A DNA stretch of 57,038 bases from an uncultured Candidatus Saccharibacteria bacterium (GTDB lineage Bacteria; Patescibacteriota; Minisyncoccia; 2-02-FULL-40-12; GWA2-44-9), in the NCBI GenBank assembly GCA_964488565.1, contig CAZAUE010000003.1:1-57038 (forward strand), written 5' to 3'. Below, one piece after another: positions 2,718 to 41,516 of this stretch. The notes beneath the pieces are model-generated. The model had not been told where the DNA came from, ran no database searches, and saw nothing but the letters and a program-made list of their open reading frames with translations. The position numbers were made by a program, and so were the translations under genes. The stretch's first letter is position 1; each line of letters begins with the position of its first letter.

Positions 2718-3935
2718 ATGAACAGAACCGAACAGTTGATAGCTGAAACAGATAGATATCTTGCTCACAACTACCATCCATTACCGGTCGTCTTTACAAA
2801 GGCGAAGGGTGTTTGGTATTGGGACGTTGAGGGAAAAAAGATTATGGACATGCTTGCTGGTTATTCGGCTGGTAACCATGGCCACTGTCATCCTCGTATT
2901 GTTAAGGCGTTAAAGGATCAATGCCAAAGACTGGTAGTTGCTCCTCGTTCAGCTTACTCAGATAAGCTTGCAGAATTTGGGCGGGTTATTACTGAGTTTT
3001 GCGGAATGGATAAAATCCTACCTTCTAACGGTGGGGTTGATGCTGTTGAAACGGCAATAAAATTAAGCCGTAAGTGGGGATATACTTACAAAGGCATTGA
3101 AGAGAAGAGTGCCGATTCTGAAATCATTGTTTGTTCCGGTAACTTTCATGGCCGAACCACAACTGTTGTGGGCTTTTCCACTGAGAGTCAGTATCGAAAA
3201 GGATTTGGGCCTTTTGCTCCCGGATTCAACGTAATTGAATTTGGAAATTCAGATGCTTTGGAAAAAGCGATTACCAGAGATACCGTAGCGTTCTTGGTTG
3301 AGCCCATTCAGGGTGAGGGTGGAATAAATATTCCCCCAAGCTCCTATTTTAGAGAAGTTGAACTGATTTGCAGAGAGAAAAATATCCTTTTGATTTTGGA
3401 TGAAATCCAGACTGGATTCGGAAGAACTGGTTATGATTTTGCTTTTCAGCATGAAAATATCCGACCCGACATTCTGATAATTGGAAAATCTCTTGGTGGT
3501 GGTATGGCCGTTTCTGGGGTTTTAGCAAGTAATGAAATAATGAGTGTCATGACTCCTGGTGATCATGGAAGCACCTTTGGTGGAAATCCTTTGGCCTGTG
3601 CTGTTGCTATTGAGGCAATCAATGTTTTGAAGGATGAGGAACTTTCAAATAGATCAGCTTTGATGGGAGATTATTTTAAGTGGAGACTAAAAGCAATAAA
3701 GAGCCCGCTTATAAAAGAGGTCAGGGGAAGAGGGTTAATGATAGGTGTTGAGCTTACTCCTCAAGCTGGAGGGGCAAGACGGTTTTGTGAAGCTTTGCTG
3801 AATGAAGGAATTTTCTGCAAAGAAACTCGCGACAACATTATTCGGTTTACTCCGCCACTTATCATAACGCAATCGCAGATAGATTGGGCGATGAAAAGAA
3901 TAGAAAAAGTTTTTCAAAATGAGGTGAGGAAATGA
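2718..3935 (+). CDS. rocD: Ornithine aminotransferase (class III PLP-dependent)
   Basis: AHNYHPLPVV, MDMLAGYSAGNHGHCHP, EPIQGEGG, DEIQTGFGRTG, PLP Lys in IIGKSLGGG, HGSTFGGNPLA. Confidence 0.88.
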   Translation: MNRTEQLIAETDRYLAHNYHPLPVVFTKAKGVWYWDVEGKKIMDMLAGYSAGNHGHCHPRIVKALKDQCQRLVVAPRSAYSDKLAEFGRVITEFCGMDKILPSNGGVDAVETAIKLSRKWGYTYKGIEEKSADSEIIVCSGNFHGRTTTVVGFSTESQYRKGFGPFAPGFNVIEFGNSDALEKAITRDTVAFLVEPIQGEGGINIPPSSYFREVELICREKNILLILDEIQTGFGRTGYDFAFQHENIRPDILIIGKSLGGGMAVSGVLASNEIMSVMTPGDHGSTFGGNPLACAVAIEAINVLKDEELSNRSALMGDYFKWRLKAIKSPLIKEVRGRGLMIGVELTPQAGGARRFCEALLNEGIFCKETRDNIIRFTPPLIITQSQIDWAMKRIEKVFQNEVRK

Positions 3936-4870
3936 GCAAAGTATTATTTGGTGGAATTTTATTTATTTTAGCATTAACTCTTGTTGCGTGTAATCCGCCA
4001 CCCGTTGAGAATGTTTACCGTAAGGAGATGCGTTTTCCCTCAACCCTTAATGTTCCAGTAGCATTTCTAGCGGTTGAATGGGGCGGTAAGCTTCGAGGTT
4101 CGGGTTCCGCGTGGCTCATTGATGGCGGTAATGGGGTTTTGTTTACCGCAAAACATGTCACTGATGCTCTCATGAATAATCAGATTGAGTTGGGTGCTAA
4201 TGAGTGTAAATTGTTTTTGGGAAACGGTAGGGTCTTTACCTGCATTACTGTTAGGGTTCCGCCATTGCGGGATGCTGTAGTGTTGAGGTTGCTTGAAAAA
4301 TTCAACCTCGAAGAGATGCCTAAGCCATATAAGATTTCAGAAAAGAAACTTAAGGTTGGGGACAAGATTTATGTTCAAGGATTTCATTCTCACCCACTTG
4401 ATGTGACTATTTCGAACAAGGAAGACGGGTTTGAAGATTTGACCGTCCCAATTTTGGAAAATTTTTACGAAATAAGGGAGGCTGATCCTTTAAGACAAAG
4501 AGAGGTCGTATTTGATAGCTTGGAGGCGGTGGTGGTTGATGTTGATGCCCGCGTTAATATTGGTAGCGATGAACCAAATTCTTACGATGCAATTAGATAC
4601 AAAACCAATGATTATATTAAGGTTATTACCACCAGAAATCATAAATTCTCCTTCGGAGGATTAAGTGGTGGTGTAGCGGTGAAGATTAATGATCAGGGAG
4701 TTCCTGAGGCTGTGGGGATTGTGACAGCCGAAAGATCCGAAAGATGGGGATATGATAAAAAGGGTAACCTTGAGGGTGTTAAAGCCCCCGTAATTATTTC
4801 GGACACCATCTTCATAACGCCAATCAGTTCTGTAAAAGAGCTTTATGAGTATGCAAGGCAAATTAGATAG
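3932..4870 (+). CDS. Lipoprotein, trypsin-like serine protease
   Basis: Lipobox LVA-C; triad candidates TAKH, RDAVVL, GGLSGG; ATGA overlap with rocD. Confidence 0.7.
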   Translation: MSKVLFGGILFILALTLVACNPPPVENVYRKEMRFPSTLNVPVAFLAVEWGGKLRGSGSAWLIDGGNGVLFTAKHVTDALMNNQIELGANECKLFLGNGRVFTCITVRVPPLRDAVVLRLLEKFNLEEMPKPYKISEKKLKVGDKIYVQGFHSHPLDVTISNKEDGFEDLTVPILENFYEIREADPLRQREVVFDSLEAVVVDVDARVNIGSDEPNSYDAIRYKTNDYIKVITTRNHKFSFGGLSGGVAVKINDQGVPEAVGIVTAERSERWGYDKKGNLEGVKAPVIISDTIFITPISSVKELYEYARQIR

Positions 4871-4874: not shown

Positions 4875-4908
4875 ATCCCACACATAGAATCCTATGTGTG
4901 GGATTTTT
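4875..4908 (+). terminator. Intrinsic terminator
   Basis: 13-bp stem atcccacacatag/ctatgtgtgggat followed by T run. Confidence 0.8.
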
Positions 4909-4977
4909 GTTTGATTGACCTTCTTTGTTATTTTCAGTATTATCTTGGGCAAGTACGTTAAAAATTGAGAGACAGAA

Positions 4978-6120
4978 ATGGCACTCACAGACCCGAATGA
5001 AGCGAGAAAATTAATCAGAGCTTTAAAGGCTCAACCAGAGAAGTTTTTATTCGGACTCAACAGGGCAGTTTACAATGCTGTACTGGCACTTGTTACGCCA
5101 ATCGCGAAGGATGGGCCAATGGGCAAAGAATGGGCTCAAGCTCACACACTGGTCTCAGACGTTCCTGGTACCGGTAAAACGGCGATGTTTAATTATTTGG
5201 CTTCAGCGATGAAAGCTAAGCTTGGAAGGGTCGATGGTAGACCTGATTTGATGCCGAGTGATTTTACGGGCAGAGAAGAGAAGGATAAATTTTCTGGCGT
5301 CAGAACCCTTTTGAAGGGCCCTCTCTTCAGCAACATCTTTTTTGCCGATGAAGTTAACAGAACTCCTCCCAAGAGTCAGGCTCCAATGCTTGGCGCCATG
5401 GAAGGTGGTCATGTTTATATTAATATAACGAATGAAAAGGATGGGGTAATTGAGTCAAAATCGTTTCCTCTTTTTCCGGTTCCGGATGATCCGACCAGAA
5501 TGTTTTTCATCACTTTCGCAACAATGAACCCAATTGAGTTTGAAGGAACCTATCCTTTGTCAGAAGCTCAGCTGGAGAGATTTACCTATCGTTTTGTGAT
5601 GGGTGCTCCATCAAGAGAAGAAGAAAAGATGATTAGGTTTGAAAACGTTGTTGGAAAAAAAGTTGAGATCGTGATGGGTTTGGGCGATCTTCTTGATATT
5701 CAAGAAATGGCAAAGAAAATCAGATTAACAGATGAAGCGAACGATCTTATTATGCGCTATCTGCAGAATTCAAGAACCCATGCTCAGGATGAGCGAGAAT
5801 TTGGCAAAACTCAAAAACGTGACGCCTCAAAAGATCTCGTGACCTTTGTTAATCAGTATGTTACTTCAGGTTGTTCACGAAGAAGAAATTATCACATGCA
5901 AGGTGCAGTGTTGGGCCATCGGCTGATGCGTTTGTTGTTGTCCGATGATAAACCAATTGAAAACCTTGATAATGTTAAAGCTACTGTTGATGATGTGAAA
6001 GCTATTGCTCCGCTTACAATGGAGCATGTGATTCTTCTTGAACCCAGATCTCTCGGAGATGATGTCACTACCAAGAAAGTGGTGAGAAGGATTATTGAAG
6101 AAACACCAATGCCATCATGA
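4978..6120 (+). CDS. MoxR-family AAA+ ATPase (MxaR-like)
   Basis: Walker A DVPGTGKT, GRPDLMPSDFTG, FADEVNRTPPKSQ, NPIEFEGTYPLSEAQLERF. Confidence 0.9.
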   Translation: MALTDPNEARKLIRALKAQPEKFLFGLNRAVYNAVLALVTPIAKDGPMGKEWAQAHTLVSDVPGTGKTAMFNYLASAMKAKLGRVDGRPDLMPSDFTGREEKDKFSGVRTLLKGPLFSNIFFADEVNRTPPKSQAPMLGAMEGGHVYINITNEKDGVIESKSFPLFPVPDDPTRMFFITFATMNPIEFEGTYPLSEAQLERFTYRFVMGAPSREEEKMIRFENVVGKKVEIVMGLGDLLDIQEMAKKIRLTDEANDLIMRYLQNSRTHAQDEREFGKTQKRDASKDLVTFVNQYVTSGCSRRRNYHMQGAVLGHRLMRLLLSDDKPIENLDNVKATVDDVKAIAPLTMEHVILLEPRSLGDDVTTKKVVRRIIEETPMPS

Positions 6121-7055
6121 AGGACCTAAGTTTCAACGACGTCCTTGCGGCGCTGACTCATATTAAGAGCGGTATCCCACTAGAAAGATTAACAAGCAGA
6201 ATTCGTCTGGGTGAACACAGGAGTTTATTTTTTGGTCCGAGTCATAATTTGTATGACATCAAAGAATTTGATCCAGAATGTGATCCACCAAATATGATTG
6301 TTGAAGTTCCGGGTGGCGATGAAGATGTTGTTTATGCTAGAAGATGTATTGAAACCCACGAGGTTAAAATAAATTTCCTTATAGATTTAAGCCCTTCTGT
6401 TTATGCGGGCGTGGATCTGAATAAGAGAAAATTACTTCTTGAGGCACTAGGCTTTATCGGAGTTACCGGTGTTCGTTATGGTGATCCAGTTGGATTCACT
6501 GGTTTTACAGATAAGATAGTTTTAAATTCAACGCCAAGGTGTGGTGCTAATAATTTTTATTATCTTGTTAGGATTGTTTACGATTATTTAAGAGACAACG
6601 ATCCAACCAAAAAGAAAATCAAGAAAGATAAAACCGATTTTTTTGCAGCATTGGATTTTGTGAGAAGGTCGTTTGATAAGTCGTGTTTTATTCCCGTGAT
6701 ATCTGATTTTGTGGGCTTTGAGAAGGTTGTTGATTCGCCCCTCTTGCGCATGGTTGCATCAAAGCATGAGTTGATATTTATATTTTTGGACGACCCGCTA
6801 GAGTTGTTGGGAGCTCAAGGTTTTGGGCAAATAAGAACAGAAGACATAGAAAGTGGAGACCAAATTGTTGTCTCAAGAAGAAGATTGTCTCAAATTGAAA
6901 AAGAAATTAGAGCTGAACGGAGAGAATTAAGAACAAAATTAAGGAGAATGGGTATCGATTCTGTTGTTTTGGAATATGGTAAACAGGGAAGACATTTTAA
7001 TAGATTAACTAGGTTTTTCCTGAGAAGACACAAGAGACTAAGTTTTAGAAGATAG
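6117..7055 (+). CDS. DUF58 / MxaS-like vWA-associated protein
   Basis: GEHRSLFFGPS, KEFDP, FLIDLSPS (DxSxS), VISDF; coupled to MoxR by ATGA overlap. Confidence 0.82.
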   Translation: MKDLSFNDVLAALTHIKSGIPLERLTSRIRLGEHRSLFFGPSHNLYDIKEFDPECDPPNMIVEVPGGDEDVVYARRCIETHEVKINFLIDLSPSVYAGVDLNKRKLLLEALGFIGVTGVRYGDPVGFTGFTDKIVLNSTPRCGANNFYYLVRIVYDYLRDNDPTKKKIKKDKTDFFAALDFVRRSFDKSCFIPVISDFVGFEKVVDSPLLRMVASKHELIFIFLDDPLELLGAQGFGQIRTEDIESGDQIVVSRRRLSQIEKEIRAERRELRTKLRRMGIDSVVLEYGKQGRHFNRLTRFFLRRHKRLSFRR

Positions 7056-7063
7056 AATTAGTC

Positions 7064-7089
7064 ACCGCCCTTTACTGGGCGGTTTTTTT
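7064..7089 (+). terminator. Intrinsic terminator
   Basis: accgccc/gggcggt stem followed by T7. Confidence 0.75.
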
Positions 7090-7133
7090 GTTATACTATC
7101 TTCGCAAAGAACCTTAACATTTTAGAGGATGCG

Positions 7134-8243
7134 ATGAGATACAAACTGCTCATCTGCGCTTTTCTATTGTTAATTGCTACACCAGCATTAAGTCAAGAAT
7201 TTTCTCCGATTGTTATTGAAACTGGCAAGCCAAATCCGAGTGTCGTTAAAAGTGGGGAACCTTTCAAGGTTACCTATAGGGCTAAGTTTTTTGACACCGT
7301 TCTTATTTATGAAGAGCGGATGAGTCCTGATAATTTGGCTCTTGAAAAAGTTGAAGCCATTGACCTTGAGGTTTCTAAGGTAAGAGTAAACAACGACTCC
7401 CTCGGATTCGTAAATGTTTGGGATTTTACTTACACCTTCAGAATTATTCAACCAGAGAAACAGGGATATAAGATTCCGCCGTTTAACTTTATTTGGGCTG
7501 AGAAAAAAGCAGGAGTTACTGAAGTTCAAACCAAAGAAAATGAAAAACCAAGAGAGATTTTAACTGAAGAGGTTGGTGTTAATTATGTTTCTTCGATTGT
7601 GAAACCGCCACCCCTTGATATTAGGGATGATATTGATTTCACTCTCCCACTGGTAGGTGGTACTGTTTTGCGCCGATGGGCCTATGCTGTAATGGGAGTT
7701 TCGTTCTTGATTTCTCTGTTTACTATTTTCAGGTTTTCTAGACGTTTAAAGCTCAAGAAAACTCAGGATCTCAGCAGGAAAGATATTTCCACAGAAGTTC
7801 CAGGCGATGACTTCATTGTTGGCACAGAACTAATTCTTTCACCAAAGAAAGCCAGAAAGAGATTCTTGGGAGAATTGAAAAAGTTGTATTTATACGATGA
7901 GGAATCGTTTGGATTAACAAAAGAAAGAAGACTTCGCCAGCTTAGTAGAGATTTACTGTTAGCAGAATTACAGGGAACGATACGAGATTCAATGTCTGAA
8001 AATGAGATTTGTGCCAAATTGTGCGAGCTTGATGAGAAACAAAAAAAACTGATTGGCTTAAAGTATTCAACCATGCTCGGTGTGGCAAGAAGATTGAAAA
8101 AATATCAGGAATGTATTGATTCGGGAACATATTTCCTGAGTGTTAATGATGAGATTGTCGAATTGCACAAGATGGTTTCTGGTCTTAAGTTCTATAAACA
8201 AGTCTTATCTTTCATTAGTCACTTAACCAAGAGGGGGAATTAA
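7134..8243 (+). CDS. Signal peptide + Ig-like + TM protein (MxaA/BatD-like)
   Basis: N-terminal signal ATPALSQE, VVKSGEPFKVTY, YKIPPFNF, single TM near residue 185; position in MoxR cluster. Confidence 0.6.
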   Translation: MRYKLLICAFLLLIATPALSQEFSPIVIETGKPNPSVVKSGEPFKVTYRAKFFDTVLIYEERMSPDNLALEKVEAIDLEVSKVRVNNDSLGFVNVWDFTYTFRIIQPEKQGYKIPPFNFIWAEKKAGVTEVQTKENEKPREILTEEVGVNYVSSIVKPPPLDIRDDIDFTLPLVGGTVLRRWAYAVMGVSFLISLFTIFRFSRRLKLKKTQDLSRKDISTEVPGDDFIVGTELILSPKKARKRFLGELKKLYLYDEESFGLTKERRLRQLSRDLLLAELQGTIRDSMSENEICAKLCELDEKQKKLIGLKYSTMLGVARRLKKYQECIDSGTYFLSVNDEIVELHKMVSGLKFYKQVLSFISHLTKRGN

Positions 8244-8244
8244 G

Positions 8245-9396
8245 ATGTCCTCAAGTTTATTCTATGTTTGGGAATTAATCAGAGCGGGCCTAAAAAGTTT
8301 CCGAGATACGAATTTTGATCTTGTCGGATTTGATTCACGGGGCCTTGCTTTTGGAGCGGGCCTTTTTATTATTCTAATTCTGTTGTTTAAGCTTTTGTGG
8401 GGTCGTAATAAGTTTAGTCATGTCAGTTCTGGGCACCGCATTTCTAGGAAATATCAGCAAGGAAAACTTGTTAAGATTATCTTTTTAACTCCCAAGATTC
8501 TTCTTGGTGTGGCCACTGTCTTTTTACTGATTGGTTTGGCTAATCCTTATTTACCCAAAACCACCGAAGAAAAGGTGGTTCAGTCACGGGAAAGAATTGA
8601 TTTGATTGACACATCATCTTCAAAGGGCTGGGAATTTGAACGCACTGGAAAATCTGCCGGACAACTTGGTCGTGAAGCATTTCTAAGATTCTTAAAAATG
8701 CGTCGAGGCCAAAACGACAGAACTTCGCTTTGGACTTTTTCCGACAACCCATATATAAGAGAAGATTTTATCATTGATGATGATATCTACATGATGCAAG
8801 CTGAGGATGCTCCCTATATAACTGTTAGTGAAGGACATCCAGCTCTTCCTGAAAACGATAAGGATGATCAAAATTTAGATATAATTACCCCGAGAGATAA
8901 AATCCAGTTTATCAATGGAGAAGCTGGCACAGATTTGAACAATGCTCTTGATGCCGTGATTAAGTATTTTGACAGAGAGGGGAATAAAAAAATTAAGAAC
9001 AAGGCTTTGCTAATAGAAACTGATGCGGCCGTTGAAGATGATGCGGAGCCGTATTTGAGGGAGCTTAAAAAAAGAAACATAAAAGTATATCTTCTACACA
9101 TTAAGCCAAACATAGAAGGCGAGAGTCAGTATGCCAACTTGAAAGGCCTTGAACATGCCGCACTGTTAAAGAAGAAGGTCTTGCAATATGGTGGTAATGT
9201 TTATGACATTCAAGACAAGAAAAGTATTGAAAATGCTTATAGAGAGATTGATAAACTAGAAAAGGCGCCCATCCTGACAGTTAGACATCTTTTTAGAGTT
9301 TTTATCTATCAAAGACCACTCTTTGTTGCGATTGCGCTGATGCTTTTGGCAATAGCAATGGGTTTGTTGATGGAAATAGTTAATGAGAATCCATAA
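8245..9396 (+). CDS. Membrane vWA protein (MxaC/BatA-like)
   Basis: N-terminal TMs, LIGLANPY, MIDAS DTSSS, AGTDL, LIETD, IENAYREIDKLEK, C-terminal TM. Confidence 0.78.
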   Translation: MSSSLFYVWELIRAGLKSFRDTNFDLVGFDSRGLAFGAGLFIILILLFKLLWGRNKFSHVSSGHRISRKYQQGKLVKIIFLTPKILLGVATVFLLIGLANPYLPKTTEEKVVQSRERIDLIDTSSSKGWEFERTGKSAGQLGREAFLRFLKMRRGQNDRTSLWTFSDNPYIREDFIIDDDIYMMQAEDAPYITVSEGHPALPENDKDDQNLDIITPRDKIQFINGEAGTDLNNALDAVIKYFDREGNKKIKNKALLIETDAAVEDDAEPYLRELKKRNIKVYLLHIKPNIEGESQYANLKGLEHAALLKKKVLQYGGNVYDIQDKKSIENAYREIDKLEKAPILTVRHLFRVFIYQRPLFVAIALMLLAIAMGLLMEIVNENP

Positions 9397-9420
9397 TCCC
9401 CGCTAAAGTGCGGGGATTTT
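9395..9420 (+). terminator. Intrinsic terminator
   Basis: aatccccgc/gcggggatt stem with T tail. Confidence 0.7.
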
Positions 9421-9526
9421 TACCCCCACACTCATTCATGAGTGTGGGGGTTTATTTTTGACAGTGCTGGAACTTAGTTTTATAGTAATCCCAAGAACTT
9501 TTAAAATTGCATAATAAGAAGGGAAT

Positions 9527-10240
9527 ATGAGAAAAAGAACCGCTGTCGGTGGTTGGGTTGTGCTTTTTGTGAAGCTGGCATTAGTTGTTTCTGTGGCAAC
9601 AGTTTTAAGCTTTACACTTATTACTCTCGCCAACCTTAGCGATAATGTAAAAAGATTTTCTTTCTACGTTAAAATAAATGATGCTGAAATGGCCAAAAAA
9701 GAACTTATTGGTCTCCATTATTTTTATGACCTAAGCCGTAAGTGGAAAGTTCAGTGGCTGGCGGACAAATATTTATTTGGCGACGCACTATTTTATGAGG
9801 TTTCCGATTCGTACCTCATAAGAGATTGGGAGAAAGTTCGGAACGATCTAAAAGAAAAATTAGATGATCCGAAATCTTATCCTTATGGAAATGCAAAATT
9901 TAGACAAGCTCAAGCCCTCTATAATAATGGTTATGAAAAAGAAGCACTGGAGCTTGTGTTAACCGAGGTGGCTGCTGATTATGAAAAAGCTCTCAGAAAT
10001 TGCTTGGGTTCGATGGCGCCATACGACAAATGCTTTGATCGTGTTTGGAATTATGATTTGGCAACCAACAAGAAAAATGCCGAAGAGGCCTTGAAGAATC
10101 CTTCGCCTGTGGTGCCATTTATTCTTGGGCCGCCAAAAAAAGATGGAGAGCCAATATTGCCTCCGCCCAAAGTGCCAGGTGGTGGGGGTAAAGAAAGTGA
10201 AGAAAAGCCAGGTGGTGGGGGAGCCAAAAAAAGACCATGA
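9527..10240 (+). CDS. MxaK-like TPR-type membrane-anchored protein
   Basis: N-terminal TM; YGNAKFRQA...ADYEKALR...WNYDLA pattern resembling MxaK/BatC; Pro/Gly-rich tail. Confidence 0.55.
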   Translation: MRKRTAVGGWVVLFVKLALVVSVATVLSFTLITLANLSDNVKRFSFYVKINDAEMAKKELIGLHYFYDLSRKWKVQWLADKYLFGDALFYEVSDSYLIRDWEKVRNDLKEKLDDPKSYPYGNAKFRQAQALYNNGYEKEALELVLTEVAADYEKALRNCLGSMAPYDKCFDRVWNYDLATNKKNAEEALKNPSPVVPFILGPPKKDGEPILPPPKVPGGGGKESEEKPGGGGAKKRP

Positions 10241-11424
10241 GTCTTCATTTCCTTGAGCCAGATTTTTTATATCTTCTGATCCCTTTAGCTACTTTATTTA
10301 TCTTTTGGATCGGTGTTACAGCGATTAAGATTTCGAAAAGACCCAATCGCACTTATGGTTCAAAATATCCGCTTATCGGAAAAATAAAATTATGGGGATT
10401 GTTTGTCATACCAGCTGGAGTTTTGATGGTTTTGGCCTTAGCCAAGCCGAGTTTCGATCAGAGCTCTTTCAGGGCATCACAGGGTGATGTAGAAGTAATT
10501 CTGGTTGTTGATCGGTCAATATCCATGCGGGCTGATGATATAAAACCGTCTCGTTTGGAGATAGCCAAACGGGAAGCTGTTAATGTGGAATCTCTTTTGA
10601 GAGAAGATGACAAGGCGGCTTTATTTATCTTCGGAAAAGAATCTCACAGAAAAATTTATCTTTCTGGAAGGTTTGAAACTACGTTTGATAGACTGGCCAG
10701 AATCTCATTCCCCGAGAGTTTAGCGGGGGACGGTCTTATTTGGGATTCTGATTTTGCCACCATGTTGGAAAACATTTATCAATCCATGGATAGACAAGAC
10801 GCAAACAGTGAAGGATATTCGGGGAAAAATTATGTCCCCAAAAAAAGATCAAATAGAATTGTTATAATTTTCAGTGATGGGGAAGATCAGTTAAAGAAAG
10901 AAAAACCAGTTTCGCCGGAAGAAATTCAGAGTCATAAGAATTATCTTAAAAGACTCAACGGAGCTTTAGCGGAATTTAAAAAGAGGGGCCTTAAGATTTA
11001 TCCCGTAGGAATTGGTACTCAAAAAGGTGTTGGGTGGACATCTTTGCTGAGGGATTACGACGCTGGTAAATATGTTCAGGGTGAAGGTTCTATGTATTAT
11101 GACGCGGGTGATTATAGCGAGGATTTATTGAAAGAATGGAAAGATAAAATTACCCGTCTTGATAAAGAAAACCTTATGTTTCTATCCAGACAATCTGGAA
11201 CTGAGCAAGGAAATAAAATCTGGTCAGTTGAAAATAGCGCAACGACAGTTAAGGATTATCTTCAGTTTGCCATTGATTCAAACAGAAGAACGTTGCTTGA
11301 ATTTAGTCAGGGTGAGGGCGATCAGGATTTGTGGCAGTACTTTCTCCTTTCTGCTGTCGGTATTTTAGGACTTGGAATTTTGTTCTATCCTGTTTCGGGA
11401 TATTTCAAAAAAAATAAAACTTAG
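10237..11424 (+). CDS. Membrane vWA protein (MxaL/BatB-like)
   Basis: LALAKPS, MIDAS VDRSISM, ADDIKPSRLEIAK, IFSDGED, YPVGIGT, C-terminal TM. Confidence 0.8.
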   Translation: MSLHFLEPDFLYLLIPLATLFIFWIGVTAIKISKRPNRTYGSKYPLIGKIKLWGLFVIPAGVLMVLALAKPSFDQSSFRASQGDVEVILVVDRSISMRADDIKPSRLEIAKREAVNVESLLREDDKAALFIFGKESHRKIYLSGRFETTFDRLARISFPESLAGDGLIWDSDFATMLENIYQSMDRQDANSEGYSGKNYVPKKRSNRIVIIFSDGEDQLKKEKPVSPEEIQSHKNYLKRLNGALAEFKKRGLKIYPVGIGTQKGVGWTSLLRDYDAGKYVQGEGSMYYDAGDYSEDLLKEWKDKITRLDKENLMFLSRQSGTEQGNKIWSVENSATTVKDYLQFAIDSNRRTLLEFSQGEGDQDLWQYFLLSAVGILGLGILFYPVSGYFKKNKT

Positions 11425-11481
11425 GTATGGCCCCGTTGTTGCGGGGCTTTTAATTTGCCTAGATTTTTGTATTGTAGGGTT

Positions 11482-12471
11482 ATGTATAGTTTGCGAAACT
11501 CAATTCTGGCAACCTTGGTCTATCACGATATTTTAGATTTCCCCCTAACTTTGCTTGAGGTTAATAAGTATTTGATAAACCCTGGGCGATTATCCAAAGA
11601 TCCTGTTTTGGGAACAATTTCTTTGAATCAAGTTGCAGAAAGCCTTGAAAGTTTAGTTGCTGCCGATCTTGTTGGCTCAAAGAATGGTTTTTATTTTTTA
11701 CCACAAAGAGACGCTCTTTATGAGTTAAGAATAAGGAGAGAAAAAATAGCTGCTCAAAAATGGAAGAAATTTTTGAGAATTGCAAAATGGTTTCAGGCGG
11801 TGCCTTATTTGAGGGGGGTTTTAGCTTCAGGTTCTCTGTCTATTAATAATACTGAACACGAAAGTGATTTCGATGTTTTACTGGTGGTAAGGTCTGGTAG
11901 ACTTTATTCGTGTAGAATATTTTTGTCTCTGGTGGCTTCGGCTTTTAGAGCAAGAAGAACGAGGTACGAAAGAAGCGCGCCAGATAAATTTTGTTTTAAT
12001 CATTACATAACTGACGGAAACATGAACATCAAGCATGAGAGTTTGTTTAATGCTCAAGCTTATGTCAATCTCAAGCCAGTTTTAGTTGCCGATGGAATTT
12101 TTAGTCGTTTTTATACTGAAAATATTTGGCTAAATAAATATGTCTATAATTTTAAACCAGCCGAGGAGTTTGTTTTAAGAAAAGTTTTTTATAATCCCTT
12201 GTTGTCTTTTGTTGGTAGTGTGGGGGAATTTGTTCTAGATTCTTCGTTGGGAGATAAATTTGAGAATTGGGCCAAGAAATATCAGCAGAAAAGAATAAAA
12301 AACAATCCGACGACTTATGAGTCTGGTGGCAGGGTTGTTTTTAGTGACAATGAACTCGAGTTTCATCCCCGTTCTTTTGAGGCGTTTGCTATTGATAAAT
12401 ACAATAAAAAATTAAAACAACTTGGCACCATTACTTATGCCGAAGAAAGGGATTCAGGGCTTAATCTCTAA
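11482..12471 (+). CDS. Nucleotidyltransferase-fold protein (pol beta superfamily) with N-terminal helical domain
   Basis: ASGSLS..N...SDFDVLLV motif; ATG 11482 chosen as start. Confidence 0.65.
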   Translation: MYSLRNSILATLVYHDILDFPLTLLEVNKYLINPGRLSKDPVLGTISLNQVAESLESLVAADLVGSKNGFYFLPQRDALYELRIRREKIAAQKWKKFLRIAKWFQAVPYLRGVLASGSLSINNTEHESDFDVLLVVRSGRLYSCRIFLSLVASAFRARRTRYERSAPDKFCFNHYITDGNMNIKHESLFNAQAYVNLKPVLVADGIFSRFYTENIWLNKYVYNFKPAEEFVLRKVFYNPLLSFVGSVGEFVLDSSLGDKFENWAKKYQQKRIKNNPTTYESGGRVVFSDNELEFHPRSFEAFAIDKYNKKLKQLGTITYAEERDSGLNL

Positions 12472-12909: not shown

Positions 12910-14724
12910 ATGAAGTGCTTTTTCAGACTTCTCTCAGCCTTTCTTTTAGTCGGACTTTTTGGCGTTGATGCCTTTGCCAATATCCCCAAAATACTCTTAT
13001 TGAAAGACCTTAAGCCAGGAACGCTGGCGATTGGTTTTTCTGTTTTTAAGGGCGTAGAGCCATTACCTTTTAACGTTGTTCTTGGTGAGTCAATAGACAA
13101 GATGGGAAGCCGTTTTATTTTAGCCAGAATTTCTGGTGGCCCGATGGATACACCTCTTGAAAAGATTGGTGCAATTTCTGGCATGAGCGGTAGCCCGATC
13201 TTTGTTAATTGCACTGATCTGGGTGACTGTATTAAAAACGGAACCTTGGTTGGCGCCTTAAGTTATCGGATCGGAAGCTTTATTGAGGGTGGGATGAATT
13301 GCCTTCTTACTCCGGCCGAGTATATGCTCGGGTCTAGATTTGGCGGATATATGGCGGCGTCTCAACTTTCAAATCGCATGTCGAGCAAGATTAACATTGA
13401 AGGCAAGGAGTTTGTTAATCTGATGGTTTTGCCAAAGATTGATGGTTTGGGATCACAGGCGACATTGGATCAAAAATGTGACGAATCAGTAAAAGGCGAA
13501 CTTAAGCCGGGCTCAATGGTTACTGTGTTTCTGACCAAGGGCACGATTTCCTTTGGAGGTTCTGGTACGGTGGTCTGGAGAGATGGTGATGAGATTTATA
13601 TTTTTGGACACCCGTTTCTCGGTACCGGCATGATTAATTATCCATTTGTTCACGTTGCGGTGGCTGACACTGTTCAGACACCGACTGGTGCTTATAAACT
13701 ACCTAGTTGCTCATTGGATACCGAGGGAACGATGCTTGTTGATGGTGCTTTTGAGGTGGCTGGTTTGATCGACAGAACTCCAGCACCCACTATTCCCTTG
13801 AAGGTGGAGCTCCACTTAAATGACAACGGTGCCATTATGGAGGAAGATGTTGTGCCAAGTCCCATGATGAGTGATGTTATTAAACAAATCCCAGTCCTTT
13901 GGGCAGGTCAATTATTGGGTGATCTCAACACGCTATCCATTGCCTATCAGGTGCGAATTGTTGTAAAGAATAATCCTGAAATTTTTCTAAAAAATATTAC
14001 CTCTGCGCGGGCAGAGGGTAATCCGTTTGCCAAGCTGTTTGGTAAAATCGATGCAACGCTTCAAAAGCTTGATGCGCTGGGAGTGTCTGGTTATGGAATT
14101 GAAAAGATTGATGTGCATGTTGATTTTATTGAGAGCCCCAATATTTGGATTAAAAAGACGGCATTTCTTTCTCAAAAAGAGGCAACTCCCGGAGAAGTGA
14201 TTTATGCCAATGTGGTTTTGGAGGAAGTTTCTTCTGGCACTATTAAGCAGATGAGTTTCCCCGTAAAAGTTCCACTTGATTTCAAAGACAGAATGGGTGT
14301 GGGTGCCTCCAGTGTGGATATTTTGATTCAAAGTAGCGGTAAGTTTACTGACAAGAAGAGTCCTGTCGGAGGAGCCTCTGTTGGAGATTTTGTCAGACAG
14401 TTAAACCAGACCATGAATTATAAAACCAATGTTTTGTATATCCAGCAAATAATGCCTCGGTTGAAATCTGATGAGGAGACGGATGGTGCTAATGCCAAAA
14501 CATCAGTCAAGCCAGCATGGAAGTGGACCGAACTTCAGGAAGGTGACTTAAGACTATTTCCAAGTAACGATAAAAGTGAAATCGTTTTGACACTTTCACC
14601 GGAGCTGAAGGGCTTCATTGATTTTGATGCAACACTTAGTCTGGAAGTTAAAGACGAGGAAGCAGTTGTTTTGGAAAAGAAGGAATCTAAAAAAAGAAAA
14701 TGGTTTGATTTTTTAAAGAAATAA
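12910..14724 (+). CDS. Secreted SpoIVB peptidase S55 domain protein
   Basis: Signal peptide; FILARISGG, GAISGMSGSPIF, VGALSY, GTVVW..DEIYIFGHPF. Confidence 0.78.
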   Translation: MKCFFRLLSAFLLVGLFGVDAFANIPKILLLKDLKPGTLAIGFSVFKGVEPLPFNVVLGESIDKMGSRFILARISGGPMDTPLEKIGAISGMSGSPIFVNCTDLGDCIKNGTLVGALSYRIGSFIEGGMNCLLTPAEYMLGSRFGGYMAASQLSNRMSSKINIEGKEFVNLMVLPKIDGLGSQATLDQKCDESVKGELKPGSMVTVFLTKGTISFGGSGTVVWRDGDEIYIFGHPFLGTGMINYPFVHVAVADTVQTPTGAYKLPSCSLDTEGTMLVDGAFEVAGLIDRTPAPTIPLKVELHLNDNGAIMEEDVVPSPMMSDVIKQIPVLWAGQLLGDLNTLSIAYQVRIVVKNNPEIFLKNITSARAEGNPFAKLFGKIDATLQKLDALGVSGYGIEKIDVHVDFIESPNIWIKKTAFLSQKEATPGEVIYANVVLEEVSSGTIKQMSFPVKVPLDFKDRMGVGASSVDILIQSSGKFTDKKSPVGGASVGDFVRQLNQTMNYKTNVLYIQQIMPRLKSDEETDGANAKTSVKPAWKWTELQEGDLRLFPSNDKSEIVLTLSPELKGFIDFDATLSLEVKDEEAVVLEKKESKKRKWFDFLKK

Positions 14725-14825
14725 TTAGTTAAGCAGCGCAAGGGCGCTGCTTTTATTGTGGTTGACAATGTGTCATTTTTGAGTAAAATATGACTACGTA
14801 AATCAACTAATAAATAGCTAGAAAT

Positions 14826-15113
14826 ATGACCAAAATCACACCACTTTCAGACCATGTTTTAATAGAACCCCTAAGAGAGGAAAAGAAAAAGGGAGGAATT
14901 ATTTTGCCAGAAACGATTGAAAAAGAGAAGCAGGAAAAGGGCAAGGTTGTCGCTGTTGGATCCGGTAAAATTAAAGATGGCAAGAGGGTGCCCATGGAGG
15001 TTAAAAAGGGTGATGTTGTTTTGTTTACCAAATACGGGCCCAATGAAATCAAGGTTGATGGTAAGGAATATTTAATAGCTAGAGAAGAAGATATCTTGGC
15101 GATTGTAAAATAG
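14826..15113 (+). CDS. groES: Co-chaperonin GroES
   Basis: [38 protein letters not shown]. Confidence 0.97.
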
Positions 15114-15133
15114 TTGTAAAAATAAAAATTTAA

Positions 15134-16846
<1,713 letters not shown>

Positions 16847-16903: not shown

Positions 16904-17036
16904 GGGTGTGGTTATCCACACATCTTTTGAGTGAAAAAATGCTATGGTGTAAATAGCTAAAAAACTATTTTGGTGTCTAACGTATTAGCCTTTATTTAAG
17001 CGCTAGCTCTTACACCAAGTGGTCTCAAAATTGAAT

Positions 17037-18029
17037 ATGAAAACTTTTAAAAAGTTTTCGGGAGTTATGGTGGTTTTTTTCTTAATGCTTGGTCTGGTCG
17101 GACCATACTCTGCGATTGCGGCAACAACCCCATCCTTAGGGGCAGCAGCAAGCTACGGCGTTCTCGGCAGTACGTATACCAACACGGTAGCAGGAACCAC
17201 TGTTAATGGAGATGTTGGATTCACTACGGGGCCAGCAGTCGCTCCTTTAGGAGTCCACACTAATTATGGATCAGGTGCCCCGTATTCTACAGCAGGCATA
17301 GATCAAAATAGTGCCTTGTCTGCTTTGAATTCTCAGGTTTGTACATTTACCTTTGCGCCAGGAGCAATTGATTTGGCTACTGACACAACTCATGGCCCAA
17401 TTGGAGTTTATGCACCAGGGGTTTATTGCGTATCAGGAGCCGCTTCTATCGGGGCAGCTGGAATTTCTCTTAGTGGTACAGGAACATATATTTTCAGAAT
17501 CAATGGTGCATTTACCACAGTAGCTAATTCCTCGGTTACATTGCCTGGTGGCGCATCATCTTGCGATGTTTTTTGGACACCGACTTCTGCCACTACACTT
17601 GGAGCTAATTCCACAATGAGAGGAACAATAATTGATGCCTCAGGAATTACTATTGGAAGTACAGCATTATTAACAGGACGAGCTTTGGCTTTTGGTGGAA
17701 CAGTCACAACTGATGCTGACACAATTACAGTTCCTTCATGTGTGGCTCCTACCCCAACTCCTACACCTACACCTACACTTACACCAACTCCTACTCCTAC
17801 ACCAACCCCAGCACCTACGCTTTCTCCTACTCCAACACCAACTTCAACACCAATCGCAACTCTTACCCCAACTCCTTTCCCAACATTACCACGTGCAGGA
17901 ATCGCTCCCGATAATGGAACCTCATGGAATCTTGTTGCCATGGTTGGAATTTTTGCCACCCTAGCTTCGCTTTATTTTGCTCGAAGAAAGCAAGCGACCG
18001 AAGGGGAGCGCAGTGCCCAGCGCCAGTAG
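17037..18029 (+). CDS. DUF3494 ice-binding-like protein, PT-repeat stalk, sortase signal LPRAG
   Basis: Signal peptide; LGAAASYGVLG, YAPGVYC, YIFRINGA, CDVFWTP, GRALA; (PT)n linker; LPRAG + TM + RRK. Confidence 0.82.
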   Translation: MKTFKKFSGVMVVFFLMLGLVGPYSAIAATTPSLGAAASYGVLGSTYTNTVAGTTVNGDVGFTTGPAVAPLGVHTNYGSGAPYSTAGIDQNSALSALNSQVCTFTFAPGAIDLATDTTHGPIGVYAPGVYCVSGAASIGAAGISLSGTGTYIFRINGAFTTVANSSVTLPGGASSCDVFWTPTSATTLGANSTMRGTIIDASGITIGSTALLTGRALAFGGTVTTDADTITVPSCVAPTPTPTPTPTLTPTPTPTPTPAPTLSPTPTPTSTPIATLTPTPFPTLPRAGIAPDNGTSWNLVAMVGIFATLASLYFARRKQATEGERSAQRQ

Positions 18030-18071
18030 GTGGCGGGTGCAAATAATTTAACTAACTAAAAATTATTTAAC

Positions 18072-19883
18072 ATGAAAATGAATAACAAAAATTCAATAAC
18101 TATAATAACCATAACCGTGTTGATTCTGTCCTTAATGCTTGGTCTGGTCGGACCAAATTCTGCGCAGGCGGCAACGGCGCCAGTTTTGGGAACCGCTTCT
18201 GGTTATTCAGTTTTTGGTAATGCCGGCATAACGGAAACCGTTGCACAGACCTCTCATCTTTGGGGAAATGCTGGCGGTAATGGTTTTGGTCACGCCAGTC
18301 TTATTGCTTCTCAGGTTGATGGGACAATAGATGCTGGGGCCAATGCTTCGGTTGTGAGTGCAATATCCTTTGCATATGGAGATCTGGCTGATGAGGCACA
18401 AACAGGAGCAATTGATTTGGCCACATCACCTACGGTCACACCGGGCGTATATGATGTTGCCGCGACGGCATTTAGTTCCACCCTTACTCTTAATGGTGCG
18501 GGTGTCTACATTTTCCGAAGTACATCAAGCATTGCTCAAACAGCTGGAGGTACGATGCTTTTGACTAATGGTGCAACGGCCTGTAATGTTTTTTGGCAGA
18601 TTCCTACATCTATGACATTTGCTGCTGCTGGAAATATTGCGGGAACGATTATTACAAACACAGGACTCATTTCATTTGTATCAGGATTGAATTTGCAGGG
18701 TCGAGCTTGGGCAGCTACTCAAGTAACGATGAGTAATAACCAGATTACTGAACCGACATGTGTTACAGCTACTTCCACCCCGGCACCTTCACGAGCAGTA
18801 GCAACAATTAATGTTGTAAAAAATGTTATTAATGATAATGGCAGAACAAAGATTGCTGCTGATTTTCCATTATTCGTTAACGGAACACCAGTTATCTCTG
18901 GAATGACATATACCTTTCCTGCGCCTGCTAGTGTGTATTCAGTGACCGAAACAGGTGATTCAAATTACACTCGTGTATTTTCTGGTGATTGTGACACAAA
19001 CGGTCAATTCAATCTAAACCCAGGTGATAACAAATTTTGTATTGTCACAAACAACGACATAGGTGCACCCATAGTTCCTCCAGTACCACCGCTTATTGAT
19101 GTATTGAAAGTTCCAAGCCCGTTAGCTTTACCAGCTGGTCCCGGTCCGGTTACATATACTTATACGCTCAAAAATGTTGGAACAGTTCCTGTAACTGATA
19201 TAACCATGGTTGGTGATACATGTAGCCCAATAGTCCGCGTTTCTGGTGACTCAAACGGAGATAATAAGCTTGATATAACTGAGACTTGGATACACACATG
19301 TTCCACAACACTAACAGAAACTCATACCAACATTGTTACCGCTACTGGATGGGCCAACGGTATTTCTGCGGTTGATATCGCCTCTGCCACAGTTATTGTT
19401 GGATCACCGGTAGTTCCACCATTGATACATTTAATAAAAAGACCAAGCGTGTTTACTCTTCCGGCGGGCGGAGGGGCGGTTACCTATACATATATAGTAA
19501 GTAATCCAGGCACAGCGCCTTTGAGCAATGTAAAAATTAGTAGTGACAAATGCACTGGAGTTCCAAGCCGTGTTTTGGGACATCCTGGAGACATTAACAA
19601 AAACAGTTTACTTGAGAGTGGCGAAGAGTGGTTGTTTACTTGTTTAACAAACATTACACAAACAACAACAAATACAGGCACAGCTAGTGGCGATGCTAAT
19701 GGTTTTACAGCTCGAGATTTAGCGGTTGCTACGGTTGTTGTGGCCGCCACTATTCCAAAGTTGCCGAGTACTGGAATTGCCCCGGATGAATTAAGTGTTC
19801 TTTGGAATATTACCATACCAACAGGAGTCTTTATTGCACTACTTTCATTCTATTTTGTTCGAAGAAAACAAGAGGACTACTAA
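18072..19883 (+). CDS. DUF3494 ice-binding-like protein with Ig-like/DUF11-type repeats and LPSTG signal
   Basis: VTPGVYDV, GVYIFRS, ACNVFWQI, LQGRAWA; two VTYTY..N.G..P repeats; LPSTG + TM + RRK. Confidence 0.8.
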   Translation: MKMNNKNSITIITITVLILSLMLGLVGPNSAQAATAPVLGTASGYSVFGNAGITETVAQTSHLWGNAGGNGFGHASLIASQVDGTIDAGANASVVSAISFAYGDLADEAQTGAIDLATSPTVTPGVYDVAATAFSSTLTLNGAGVYIFRSTSSIAQTAGGTMLLTNGATACNVFWQIPTSMTFAAAGNIAGTIITNTGLISFVSGLNLQGRAWAATQVTMSNNQITEPTCVTATSTPAPSRAVATINVVKNVINDNGRTKIAADFPLFVNGTPVISGMTYTFPAPASVYSVTETGDSNYTRVFSGDCDTNGQFNLNPGDNKFCIVTNNDIGAPIVPPVPPLIDVLKVPSPLALPAGPGPVTYTYTLKNVGTVPVTDITMVGDTCSPIVRVSGDSNGDNKLDITETWIHTCSTTLTETHTNIVTATGWANGISAVDIASATVIVGSPVVPPLIHLIKRPSVFTLPAGGGAVTYTYIVSNPGTAPLSNVKISSDKCTGVPSRVLGHPGDINKNSLLESGEEWLFTCLTNITQTTTNTGTASGDANGFTARDLAVATVVVAATIPKLPSTGIAPDELSVLWNITIPTGVFIALLSFYFVRRKQEDY

Positions 19884-19904
19884 GTATTGATAAAAGTTGA
19901 AAAC

Positions 19905-19935
19905 CAAGAGTCCCGCCACGGTGGCGGGACTCTTG
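19905..19935. repeat. Near-perfect 31-bp palindrome between adhesin and sortase genes
   Basis: caagagtcccgccac-g-gtggcgggactcttg. Confidence 0.8.
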
Positions 19936-19959
19936 TGGCGATAATTTTTTGAAAAGTTT

Positions 19960-20559
19960 ATGAAATTAAAAACATTATCAACGAGAACATTGGTGATTGG
20001 AATTATTGCTGCTTCAATGTTTTTGTTGGCACTATTTTTTGATATTTTTCAGAAAAATAGTTCGGCGAGACTTATTGAAAATTTTGACAAAAACTTCACA
20101 CAAGAGCAACTGGGTCGTGGACTGCCAATGCGTCTTAAAATTCCAAAAATTAATGTTGATTCCGATGTTGAAAGTGTGGGCCTTGCCCCCGATAGTTCAA
20201 TTGGTGTTCCAAGAGAGCGAGAGAATGTCGCTTGGTTTAATACTGGATCACGCCCAGGTGATAATGGTAGTGCTATTATTGTCGGACATTATGGAATAAA
20301 TAATAAAAAAACTTCGGCATTTGATAATCTGCACAGATTGCGCAAGGGGGATAAATTATATGTGGAAGATGACAAAGGGGTAGTTACAACTTTTGTTGTT
20401 CGTGAAAACAGAAGATACGACCCCGATGCAGACTCTTCAAGTGTGTTTGGTCCAAATGACGGAAAGTCACACCTCAATCTTGTCACTTGCGAGGGAACTT
20501 GGGATGAAGAGAACCAGCAGTATACTAAGCGATTAGTAGTGTTTACTGACAAAGAATAA
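19960..20559 (+). CDS. Class F sortase
   Basis: N-terminal TM; PMRLKIPKINVD, RPGDNGSAIIVGH, LNLVTC, KRLVVF (His/Cys/Arg triad). Confidence 0.9.
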   Translation: MKLKTLSTRTLVIGIIAASMFLLALFFDIFQKNSSARLIENFDKNFTQEQLGRGLPMRLKIPKINVDSDVESVGLAPDSSIGVPRERENVAWFNTGSRPGDNGSAIIVGHYGINNKKTSAFDNLHRLRKGDKLYVEDDKGVVTTFVVRENRRYDPDADSSSVFGPNDGKSHLNLVTCEGTWDEENQQYTKRLVVFTDKE

Positions 20560-41389: not shown

Positions 41390-41516
41390 AGGAGCCTAAA
41401 CTCGGCTGATTTATCAGCAGGGCATGGCACAAAATCGTAGCGTATATAGACCCCATCATAGGGCGTACGCTACGTTGCAGACCGAAAGGTTTGTAGGTCA
41501 CCGAAAGGTGGCTCCT
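41390..41516 (+). promoter_or_regulatory. Structured leader / ncRNA candidate
   Basis: Closing stem aggagcc/ggctcct; 9-bp cgtagcgta/tacgctacg; two GAAA-capped hairpins; tagaca..tataat promoter-like sequence upstream. Confidence 0.45.

Follow-up and report, generated by a model that had tools for sequence, protein, structure and literature searches.

A Bat-type MoxR/vWA gene cluster with mxa-like gene order in a CPR bacterium, and its linkage in related loci to a quinoprotein-like propeller

In the 57,038-nucleotide stretch of contig CAZAUE010000003.1 analysed here (the window), six co-directional open reading frames (ORFs; g1 to g6) fill positions 4978-11424 exactly, as an ORF check of the window confirmed, and encode in this order a MoxR-type AAA+ ATPase, a DUF58 protein, a bitopic membrane protein, a von Willebrand factor A (vWA) membrane protein, a small membrane-anchored protein and a second vWA membrane protein. 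A MoxR/DUF58/vWA cluster had been noticed at this position in an earlier reading of the sequence (the original prediction) and is confirmed; that reading had picked out a real object but over-interpreted it. We find that the order of the six genes is that of the mxaRSACKL genes of methylotrophs, every one of which the methanol dehydrogenase (MDH) MxaFI needs in order to be loaded with Ca2+ (PMC12276312), whereas the sequences are Bat-like; the clusters of this candidate phyla radiation (CPR) bacterium, of Bat and of Mxa are versions of one machine. On its own the Mxa-like order would be a curiosity, and the weight of the finding comes from sister lineages, in which the same cluster is linked to a propeller protein of the quinoprotein alcohol dehydrogenase (quinoprotein-ADH) family.

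The reading that we favour, with a probability of about 0.6, is that the window carries a complete and selectively maintained cluster, of a form specific to a Parcubacteria (Yanofskybacteria-like) clade, which encodes a Bat-type trans-membrane MoxR/vWA machine working like Mxa and whose propeller client was lost or relocated in the window lineage. Few conserved gene clusters of bacteria are as widespread as the Bat-type MoxR/DUF58/vWA clusters, which according to PMC3557215 have never had a function demonstrated; the only relative with a known job is Mxa. With the propeller linkage, the question of what Bat-type machines do becomes easier to test: a remote minimal-genome lineage that keeps the machine linked to the same enzyme superfamily offers a natural comparison and a small, tractable test system. 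The contribution of the window itself is more modest: it holds a well-conserved, client-less member of the CPR variant of the Bat/Mxa machine.

Gene content and conservation of the cluster

The first gene, g1 (4978..6120, on the plus strand as are all genes of the cluster), encodes a cytoplasmic MoxR-type AAA+ ATPase of 380 aa from a divergent, CPR-specific subfamily. It scores 115 bits against Pfam AAA_3 (PF07726; cut-off 27), and its Walker A (GTGKT, aa 64-68, nt 5167-5181), Walker B (FFADE, aa 121-125, nt 5338-5352), sensor 1 (TMNP) and arginine finger (LERF) motifs are all intact; the above-threshold match, the four motifs and the neighbouring DUF58 and vWA genes together identify g1 as MoxR proper. 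It overlaps by 4 bp with g2 (6117..7055), whose cytoplasmic, vWA-like product of 312 aa matches Pfam DUF58 with 55 bits and carries a DxSxS-type motif (DLSPS, aa 90-94). Next come g3 (7134..8243), encoding a bitopic membrane protein of 369 aa with a signal peptide, and, after a single base, g4 (8245..9396), encoding a BatA/MxaC-type vWA membrane protein of 383 aa. They are followed by g5 (9527..10240), for a 237-aa protein predicted to be all-alpha (TPR-like) and anchored by a transmembrane (TM) helix, and, again with a 4-bp overlap, by g6 (10237..11424), for a BatB/BatA-type vWA membrane protein of 395 aa. Pfam recognised g6 (VWA_2, 37 bits) and, weakly, g4 (VWA/VWA_2), and found no family over threshold for g3 or g5; the sole NCBIfam match was a sub-threshold one of g6 to BatB_Lepto.

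The metal ion-dependent adhesion site (MIDAS) of g4 is complete, with DTSSS at aa 122-126 (nt 8608-8622), GT at aa 228-229 (within nt 8923-8937) and D260 (within nt 9013-9027), and these DxSxS, GT and D elements are unchanged in 10 of 10 orthologues. The MIDAS of g6 comprises DRSIS at aa 92-96 (nt 10510-10524) and D214 (within nt 10870-10884); its DxSxS is retained in eight of nine orthologues, most of which have a Ser at the usual Thr position. Pfam and sequence features thus agree with the gene content first proposed (MoxR, DUF58, a signal-plus-TM protein and two vWA proteins) and with the claim that the DxSxS MIDAS motifs are intact.

The named closest relatives of g1 and g5 belong to Candidatus Yanofskybacteria, Taylorbacteria and Colwellbacteria and to the 'Patescibacteria group', all of them CPR, as the original prediction had surmised for the cell, and groundwater-metagenome contigs of PRJNA268031 encode identical proteins. 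By these sequence relationships a CPR origin is supported, with a Parcubacteria/Yanofskybacteria-like bacterium from groundwater as the host. The g1 family comprises some 73 homologue clusters at 42-92% identity, those with names being CPR, below which there is a sharp drop to 33% (ordinary MoxRs). The named members of the g5 family (82 members, none with a Pfam domain) and of the g3 family (87 representative clusters, with no Pfam assignment) are likewise all CPR.

The whole block from g0, the gene preceding g1, to g7, the gene following g6, is found again in about 20 related contigs, with MoxR identities as low as 42%, and its usual borders are uvrC or an ornithine aminotransferase gene on one side and g8-groES-groEL on the other; since the same genes stand in the same order in these contigs, the cluster is far beyond chance. 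Compared with a relative of 88% identity (L166; related loci are cited by our L numbers where needed), g1-g6 of the window show proportions of nonsynonymous (pN) and synonymous (pS) differences of 0.07-0.22 and 0.64-0.76, respectively, with synonymous sites saturated, and the ratio of the corresponding substitution rates (dN/dS) is 0.05-0.15 for g1, g3, g4 and g6, the genes for which dS was computable. Gene g8 was left out of this comparison as its alignment was poor (27% identity). The genes of the cluster are therefore under purifying selection, though the propeller gene is not in the window. In one related locus, two tandem paralogues of the BatA-like vWA gene g4 are found (L074:13221-14396 and 14495-15637).

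Kinship with Bat and Mxa, and membrane layout

As references we used genuine mxaFJGIRSACKLD clusters on plasmids of Methylobacterium nodulans and Paracoccus methylovorus (L067, L068), found by tblastn with an MxaF sequence that showed 93% identity to a Methylobacterium plasmid, and Bat-type clusters of Bacteroides finegoldii, Leptospira interrogans, Cetobacterium somerae and Alloyangia pacifica. Because BLASTP of g2-g8 against all non-CPR loci collected found no match, we turned to profiles built from 9-10 CPR orthologues per gene. The g1 profile gave 135-167 bits to Bat MoxRs versus 56-59 bits to MxaR, the g2 profile 28-93 bits to Bat DUF58 proteins (Bacteroides 93, Cetobacterium 72) versus 4 and 20 bits to the two MxaS proteins, and the g6 profile 31-70 bits to BatA/BatB versus 4-16 bits to MxaC/MxaL. 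With the g4 profile, BatA scored 28-53 bits (Cetobacterium 53, Bacteroides 51, Leptospira 28), the first vWA protein of Alloyangia 15 bits, MxaC 34-35 bits and MxaL negatively. Mxa proteins thus score mostly 2-4 times lower than Bat proteins, with g4 as the exception. Here Leptospira BatA and the Alloyangia protein score under MxaC, and the preference of g4 for Bat is drawn from the Cetobacterium and Bacteroides scores and from hhalign.

In hhalign comparisons, g4 matched BatA with 99.0% probability (E 3.5e-18, full length), BatB with 98.2% and MxaC with 97.8%, while g6 matched BatB with 99.6% (E 5e-25), BatA with 99.6%, MxaC with 94.7% (N-terminal part only) and MxaL with 77%; MxaC is itself BatA-like (99.5%). 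The sole PDB match of g1 was 2r44, a Cytophaga MoxR (E 4e-26), and those of g6 were 3ibs (Bacteroides BatB) and 4jdu (an aerotolerance-related membrane protein). A tblastn search with g6 of 72,556 plasmids retrieved Bat-type relatives only, from Bacteroidota, Cetobacterium, Vibrio and similar, with no mxa plasmid among the matches, and in a neighbour-joining tree the CPR MoxRs form a clade of their own, while MxaR and the MoxR of a Caballeronia plasmid (see below) form another. Compositional bias as the source of the higher Bat scores was rejected for g1, since Alloyangia, a high-GC alphaproteobacterium, gives 135 bits to g1 versus the 56-59 bits of MxaR. The recognisable components (g1, g2, g4 and g6), whose best profile, hhalign and PDB matches are to the Bat family, thus group by sequence with Bat, not with Mxa. 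The closer match to Mxa that the original prediction saw in the gene order does not carry over to the sequences, where profiles, hhalign, PDB matches and plasmid tblastn favour Bat and the tree keeps the CPR MoxRs apart from MxaR.

Bat operons (Bacteroides; Leptospira; Borrelia bb0170-bb0176; Cetobacterium) share with the CPR cluster a MoxR proper and a DUF58 protein, two TM-TM-vWA-TM proteins with MIDAS and a bitopic third gene product, which in Bacteroides finegoldii has 362 aa and carries the annotation 'BatD family'. Their TM-anchored TPR protein, BatC, is like g5 in layout (an N-terminal TM helix plus ~200 aa of helices), although g5 has no significant TPR match. In the bat operons of Bacteroides, Leptospira and Cetobacterium (L077, L080, L081), however, the two vWA genes are adjacent and the TPR gene comes after them, whereas g5 stands between g4 and g6 in all CPR loci. 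Also unlike Bat, the CPR cluster has no large BatD (~600 aa) and no BatE, its g3 and g5 are CPR-specific and lack a Pfam assignment, its MoxR is only ~30% identical, and its relatives carry a quinoprotein-ADH-like gene in the cluster, which Bat operons do not.

In the MxaRSACKL clusters of Methylobacterium and Paracoccus, by contrast, the gene order is identical to that of g1-g6, as the original prediction had correctly seen, and the products of the third to fifth genes have the same membrane architecture. Further likenesses are three vWA-type proteins with DxSxS, a best, though weak, match of g5 to MxaK and, in related CPR loci, the physical linkage of the cluster to a member of the MxaF superfamily. 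The differences from Mxa are that the window has no mxaF, mxaI, mxaJ or mxaG, that MxaL has a single N-terminal TM helix where g6 has the BatB-type pair, and that the propeller of the CPR loci lacks the Cys-Cys pair and Ca2+ ligands of MxaF and belongs to a monoderm CPR host without synthesis of pyrroloquinoline quinone (PQQ).

The cluster had been called an orphan for want of a PQQ dehydrogenase. Searches of the 57-kb window by tblastn and Pfam indeed found neither an MxaF homologue nor one of the CPR propeller, and no remnant in the window of the propeller gene or of the Cys-rich gene that adjoins it in relatives. This absence is ordinary, clusters of such a type without MDH being the rule in bacteria, and the peculiarity implied by the word orphan falls away, since even the mxa order occurs without MDH: plasmid p3 of Caballeronia sp. 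Lep1P3 (L078:5036-10239) carries genes for MoxR, DUF58, a bitopic protein, vWA, a small TM protein and vWA in the same order with no dehydrogenase nearby. It differs from the CPR cluster in that its proteins are of the Mxa sequence subfamily and its host is proteobacterial. The Caballeronia cluster is located in a heavy-metal and arsenic resistance island beside IS91 and integrase genes.

Membrane layouts were derived from hydropathy and the positive-inside rule. No TM segment was found in g1 or g2, whereas g4 and g6 have the layout TM-TM-vWA-TM, with the basic TM1-TM2 loop predicted inside and the vWA domain predicted outside, in agreement with the experimentally mapped topology of the Borrelia BatA-like protein BB0173, whose vWA domain likewise faces outward (PMC5700661). 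After its N-terminal TM helix the remainder of g5 is predicted to be extracellular, and g3 is predicted to consist of a signal peptide, an ectodomain of ~160 aa, a TM helix and a cytoplasmic domain of ~170 aa. These layouts of g3-g6 are common to the Bat and Mxa counterparts, with the exception of MxaL, which has one N-terminal TM helix compared to two in g6 and BatB.

The AlphaFold model of g3 (predicted local distance difference test score, pLDDT, 87) has an Ig-like beta-sandwich at aa 26-151, a TM helix at ~aa 183-201 and a cytoplasmic helical bundle at aa 237-368, and Foldseek matched it to Ig-like and pilin domains (best E 5.7e-4). The ectodomain may be BatD-like, by weak matches: Pfam BatD matches g3 of the window below threshold (E 0.018) and 11 of 59 members of its family (best E 2e-4), two members match DUF4381, and hhalign against the N-terminus of BatD gave a probability of 51%. 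In the g5 model (pLDDT 76) there are eight short helices besides the TM helix, and the tail (aa 198-237), rich in Gly, Pro and Lys, is disordered. Its top Foldseek matches are nearly all TPR proteins, none of them significant (best E 0.34), and hhalign gave 33% to the TPR-like region of MxaK, 6% to BatE and <1% to BatC. When deeper alignments of g3 and g5 were used in hhalign against small reference alignments, the signal was no better than with 9-sequence alignments. The 'short TPR-like protein' of the original prediction thus stands as a modelled all-alpha, TM-anchored protein, while its identity as a TPR protein is plausible but not proven.

The soluble pairs NorQ/NorD, CbbQ/CbbO and RavA/ViaA also combine a MoxR-class hexameric ATPase with a MIDAS-bearing vWA partner, and together the two remodel a target for metal insertion or activation (PMC9976466, PMC13036017). 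They differ in having two components, with the vWA partner on the same membrane side as the ATPase, whereas the CPR cluster has vWA domains predicted outside and an ATPase inside, with the DUF58 and bitopic proteins between them. An anti-phage defence or vWA-MoxR conflict system was considered and rejected, as no PADLOC defence-system model matched any of g0-g8 and the vWA domains are anchored in the membrane, with a predicted position outside the cytoplasm.

The predicted topology would also suit integrin-like adhesins, with the outward MIDAS domains attaching a presumably episymbiotic cell to its host and MoxR controlling their conformation. Consistent with this, the cell lacks an outer membrane and the predicted place of the ectodomains is on its outside, a sortase and cell-wall-type surface proteins are encoded nearby, and the Borrelia Bat-cluster vWA protein BB0172 binds an integrin (PMC5700661). 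Against it, the vWA proteins are TM-anchored at both ends and have short ectodomains, unlike known adhesins, they show no variability of the host-range type, their MIDAS and core being conserved, and the strict linkage to the propeller in relatives (see below) would be left unexplained, so that we consider adhesion highly improbable.

A quinoprotein-like propeller in related loci and the proposed machine

Beside the cluster, three of the first nine related loci carry an opposite-strand gene for a protein of ~500 aa with PQQ repeats. Such propeller genes are found at L002:8356-9855(-), L076:8362-9870(-), L071:16892-18385(-), L083:10001-11497, L084:4598-6100 and L085:10001-11509, and also in L086-L092. 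The product, a secreted protein with a signal peptide, can be aligned with MxaF from end to end (24-25% identity over ~545 residues, E 1e-30 to 1e-38). Its match to quinoprotein ADHs (PedH/PedE) reaches E 7e-54 versus ~1e-5 for BamB, and a BamB-like identity was rejected on these values. It keeps R109, T159, W243, the catalytic D303, R331 and N394 (MxaF numbering); identity with a canonical MDH or XoxF was rejected on the active-site residues given below. The nearest non-CPR relatives (~40% identity) are acidobacterial dehydrogenases of ~530 aa and quinohaemoprotein dehydrogenases of ~790 aa, in which E55 and N261 are kept. In all five loci checked the propeller gene is adjoined by a gene for a small secreted Cys-rich protein of 124-149 aa (L083:9499-9906, L084:4040-4489, L085:11603-12010, L076:16645-17058 and L072:7098-7472), which has no Pfam match and ends in a C-terminal module of ~60 aa with 8-10 conserved Cys. 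That relatives carry this quinoprotein-ADH-family gene inside the cluster undermines the assumption that an enzyme of this kind would be of no use to a CPR cell.

A survey that started from the propeller (three contig look-ups plus a metagenome scan) placed it inside or beside the same cluster in 12 of the 12 distinct CPR loci that carry the gene, versus a MoxR or vWA neighbour in two of 73 non-CPR homologue loci (one a MoxR 8 kb off, the other a weak vWA match). Four placements were seen, namely between g6 and g7 on the plus strand, between g6 and g7 on the minus strand, between g0 and g1 on the minus strand and between g2 and g3 on the plus strand, the interval between g6 and g7 being the commonest and that between g0 and g1 occurring in three loci. 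In a tree of MoxR plus DUF58 rooted with Bat, the propeller-bearing loci are the deepest branches and are interleaved with propeller-less loci, which suggests that the association of propeller and cluster is probably ancestral, with repeated loss. No paper that connects MoxR clusters to quinoproteins in CPR came up in our literature search. Grouping with ordinary Bat clusters together with the lack of a co-inherited partner had been named in advance as the outcome that would speak against the original prediction: the grouping is what we observe, whereas a partner does exist in relatives, in the form of the propeller, and is of an Mxa-like kind.

These distributions bear on the possibility that the cluster is an ordinary Bat-type envelope-stress or 'aerotolerance' module for general membrane housekeeping, which has no dedicated client and of which the propeller is one beneficiary or passenger. 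In its favour, the sequence of every recognisable part is Bat-like, the propeller is missing from at least seven CPR clusters that are nevertheless conserved under purifying selection, Bat clusters occur in many phyla without an adjacent enzyme, and the cluster lies next to GroES/GroEL and two secreted proteases. A passenger, however, would not be expected to sit in the cluster in 12 of 12 cases and at four positions when only two of 73 non-CPR loci show anything similar, and according to PMC3557215 no general Bat function has been demonstrated. We therefore judge this explanation to be rather unlikely.

According to the reading that we favour, of a Bat-type machine working like Mxa, a MoxR hexamer (g1) and the vWA-like DUF58 protein (g2) as its adaptor would act in the cytoplasm, while g3 would cross the membrane and couple g1 and g2 to the outside through its cytoplasmic helical bundle. 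On the outer face, a binding platform would be built from the two MIDAS domains (g4, g6) together with the Ig-like part of g3 and the TPR-like part of g5. By analogy to MxaRSACKL, NorQD and CbbQO, ATP-driven remodelling passed on to the MIDAS domains would open an exported client for metal or cofactor loading. The ancestral CPR client would have been the secreted eight-bladed quinoprotein-ADH-like propeller together with the small Cys-rich secreted protein, and in the window lineage the propeller gene would have been lost or moved beyond the 57 kb, leaving the machine to serve another exported protein or a client encoded elsewhere. A relation of client and machine fits, because the propeller is never seen without the cluster while the cluster is often seen without the propeller.

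Several points weigh against this reading. No client was identified in the window, at least seven clusters (those of the window, L166, L001, L069/L070, L074, L075 and one further contig) have no propeller, and the machine is not strictly tied to it. Neither g3 nor g5 has a significant sequence match to MxaA, MxaK or BatC. The propeller itself has C103-C104 deleted, both Ca2+ ligands replaced (E177 by N; N261 by T, L or V) and E55 changed to R, replacements that may preclude canonical binding of PQQ or metal; 'metal loading' is accordingly an analogy. Furthermore, a recent preprint reports that no CPR genome encodes PQQ biosynthesis, and that many encode six-bladed PQQ-type proteins (bioRxiv 10.64898/2026.07.10.737718). 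The whole region from UvrC to GroEL is syntenic in the clade, and the persistent linkage may be owed in part to a bias in local rearrangement. Finally, the action of an ATPase in the cytoplasm on domains beyond the membrane has no explained precedent in any Bat-type system.

More tentatively, the CPR cluster might be an independent, Bat-derived counterpart of Mxa that matures a quinoprotein-ADH-like propeller and its Cys-rich partner in bacteria that do not make PQQ, the propeller possibly having a scavenged cofactor and an unusual metal site. If this possibility were true, it would provide a second, phylogenetically remote pairing of a Bat-type machine with a PQQ propeller and would speak for a general role of Bat systems in the maturation of exported enzymes, while the client-less lineage of the window would represent a client switch or a relic kept for another exported protein. 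The related loci show that some CPR bacteria have eight-bladed quinoprotein-like enzymes, with a probable maturation apparatus of their own, despite lacking PQQ synthesis, which bears on the use by symbionts of host- or community-derived cofactors.

Flanking genes and other features of the window

Upstream of the cluster, g0 (3932..4870, plus strand) encodes a trypsin-fold serine protease lipoprotein of 312 aa with a weak Pfam Trypsin match. Its lipobox Cys20 and the catalytic triad H75, D114 and S245 are invariant in orthologues. An orthologue of g0 lies upstream of the MoxR gene wherever the region is visible, including in the most divergent loci, and stays put even in loci where a different gene is found upstream of it. 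The ornithine aminotransferase gene (2718-3935) overlaps the start of g0 by 4 bp, which suggests translational coupling, and the pair recurs in several relatives (L074, L076 and L166). As a constant neighbour, g0 is a candidate client of the machine and may or may not be a part of it.

A consensus scan, whose hairpins and promoter-like sites are pattern matches only, placed a terminator-like hairpin (4875-4904, plus strand; a 13-bp stem followed by a T-run) and a promoter-like site (4915-4943, plus strand) between g0 and g1, and another such hairpin (9422-9451, plus strand; 13-bp stem) and promoter-like site (9458-9486, plus strand; 11/12 positions matching) between g4 and g5. Weaker hairpins lie at 7064-7083 after g2 and at 11429-11448 after g6. 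Taken over the region, terminator-like hairpins follow g0, g2, g4, g6 and g8, and promoter-like sites precede g1, g5 and groES. By these patterns g0 appears to be a transcription unit separate from the cluster.

Downstream, g7 (11455..12471, plus strand) encodes a cytoplasmic, nucleotidyltransferase-like protein of 338 aa with SDFDV at aa 137-141; its orthologues, one of which has a faint NTP_transf_2 match, are 51-86% identical and are located downstream of the cluster in all loci examined. The product of g8 (12910-14724) is a secreted protein of 604 aa with GMSGSP at aa 91-96, orthologues of which give faint matches to Peptidase_S55 (SpoIVB-like). In most relatives g8 lies between the cluster and groES/groEL, in some it is replaced or highly divergent, and together with a PD40/Tricorn-like protein it recurs downstream in many loci. 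By Pfam, the neighbouring PD40 protein of the window has PD40 and DPPIV_N domains only and no Omp85 domain.

The original prediction had sought the client among these neighbours, naming the proteases and a PD40 propeller/Omp85 protein, and the machine might accordingly mature an exported product of the window itself, be it the trypsin-like lipoprotein g0, the S55-like protease g8 or the PD40 protein. In favour of this proposal are the constant position of g0 directly upstream and the invariance of its triad and lipobox, as well as the recurrence of g8 and the PD40/Tricorn-like protein. Yet the strong terminator-like hairpin and the promoter-like site split g0 from g1, and three loci have the propeller gene, on the opposite strand, in the space between the two. 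Adjacency counts for little where the whole region is syntenic, several loci have another gene in place of g8 or a highly divergent g8, and the PD40 protein has no Omp85 domain. Neither the proteases nor the PD40 protein are thus supported as clients, and we hold maturation of a neighbour in the window to be improbable.

A few kb upstream of the cluster, two related loci carry a reverse transcriptase gene (RVT_1; L076:3161-4530 and L166:5352-6389), accompanied in L076 by a bAvd-like accessory gene, and it may belong to a diversity-generating retroelement; the window starts too near uvrC to show the equivalent region. Further into the window, two secreted Ice_binding-like (PF11999) proteins, one of them also with DUF7507, are encoded ahead of a sortase at 17019-20559, which suggests a locus for sortase-anchored surface proteins in a monoderm CPR cell. 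At 38281-38535 (plus strand) a group I intron (Rfam RF00028, 65.5 bits, 38301-38485) splits a tRNA gene, with the acceptor, D-arm and 5' half of the anticodon stem just upstream and the T-arm and 3' half of the acceptor just downstream; ARAGORN calls a tRNA here only after in-silico splicing. Adjoining the intron-bearing tRNA gene is a probable integrated element (38480-48832), in which GC drops to 0.32-0.35 and which encodes a large serine recombinase (38480-40162, minus strand), a helix-turn-helix protein (40439-40921, minus strand), a LOOT RNA (RF03000, 41393-41513), an 864-aa protein (44010-46604) with weak, sub-threshold matches to PHP, SMC_N and AAA_21, and a GT4 glycosyltransferase.

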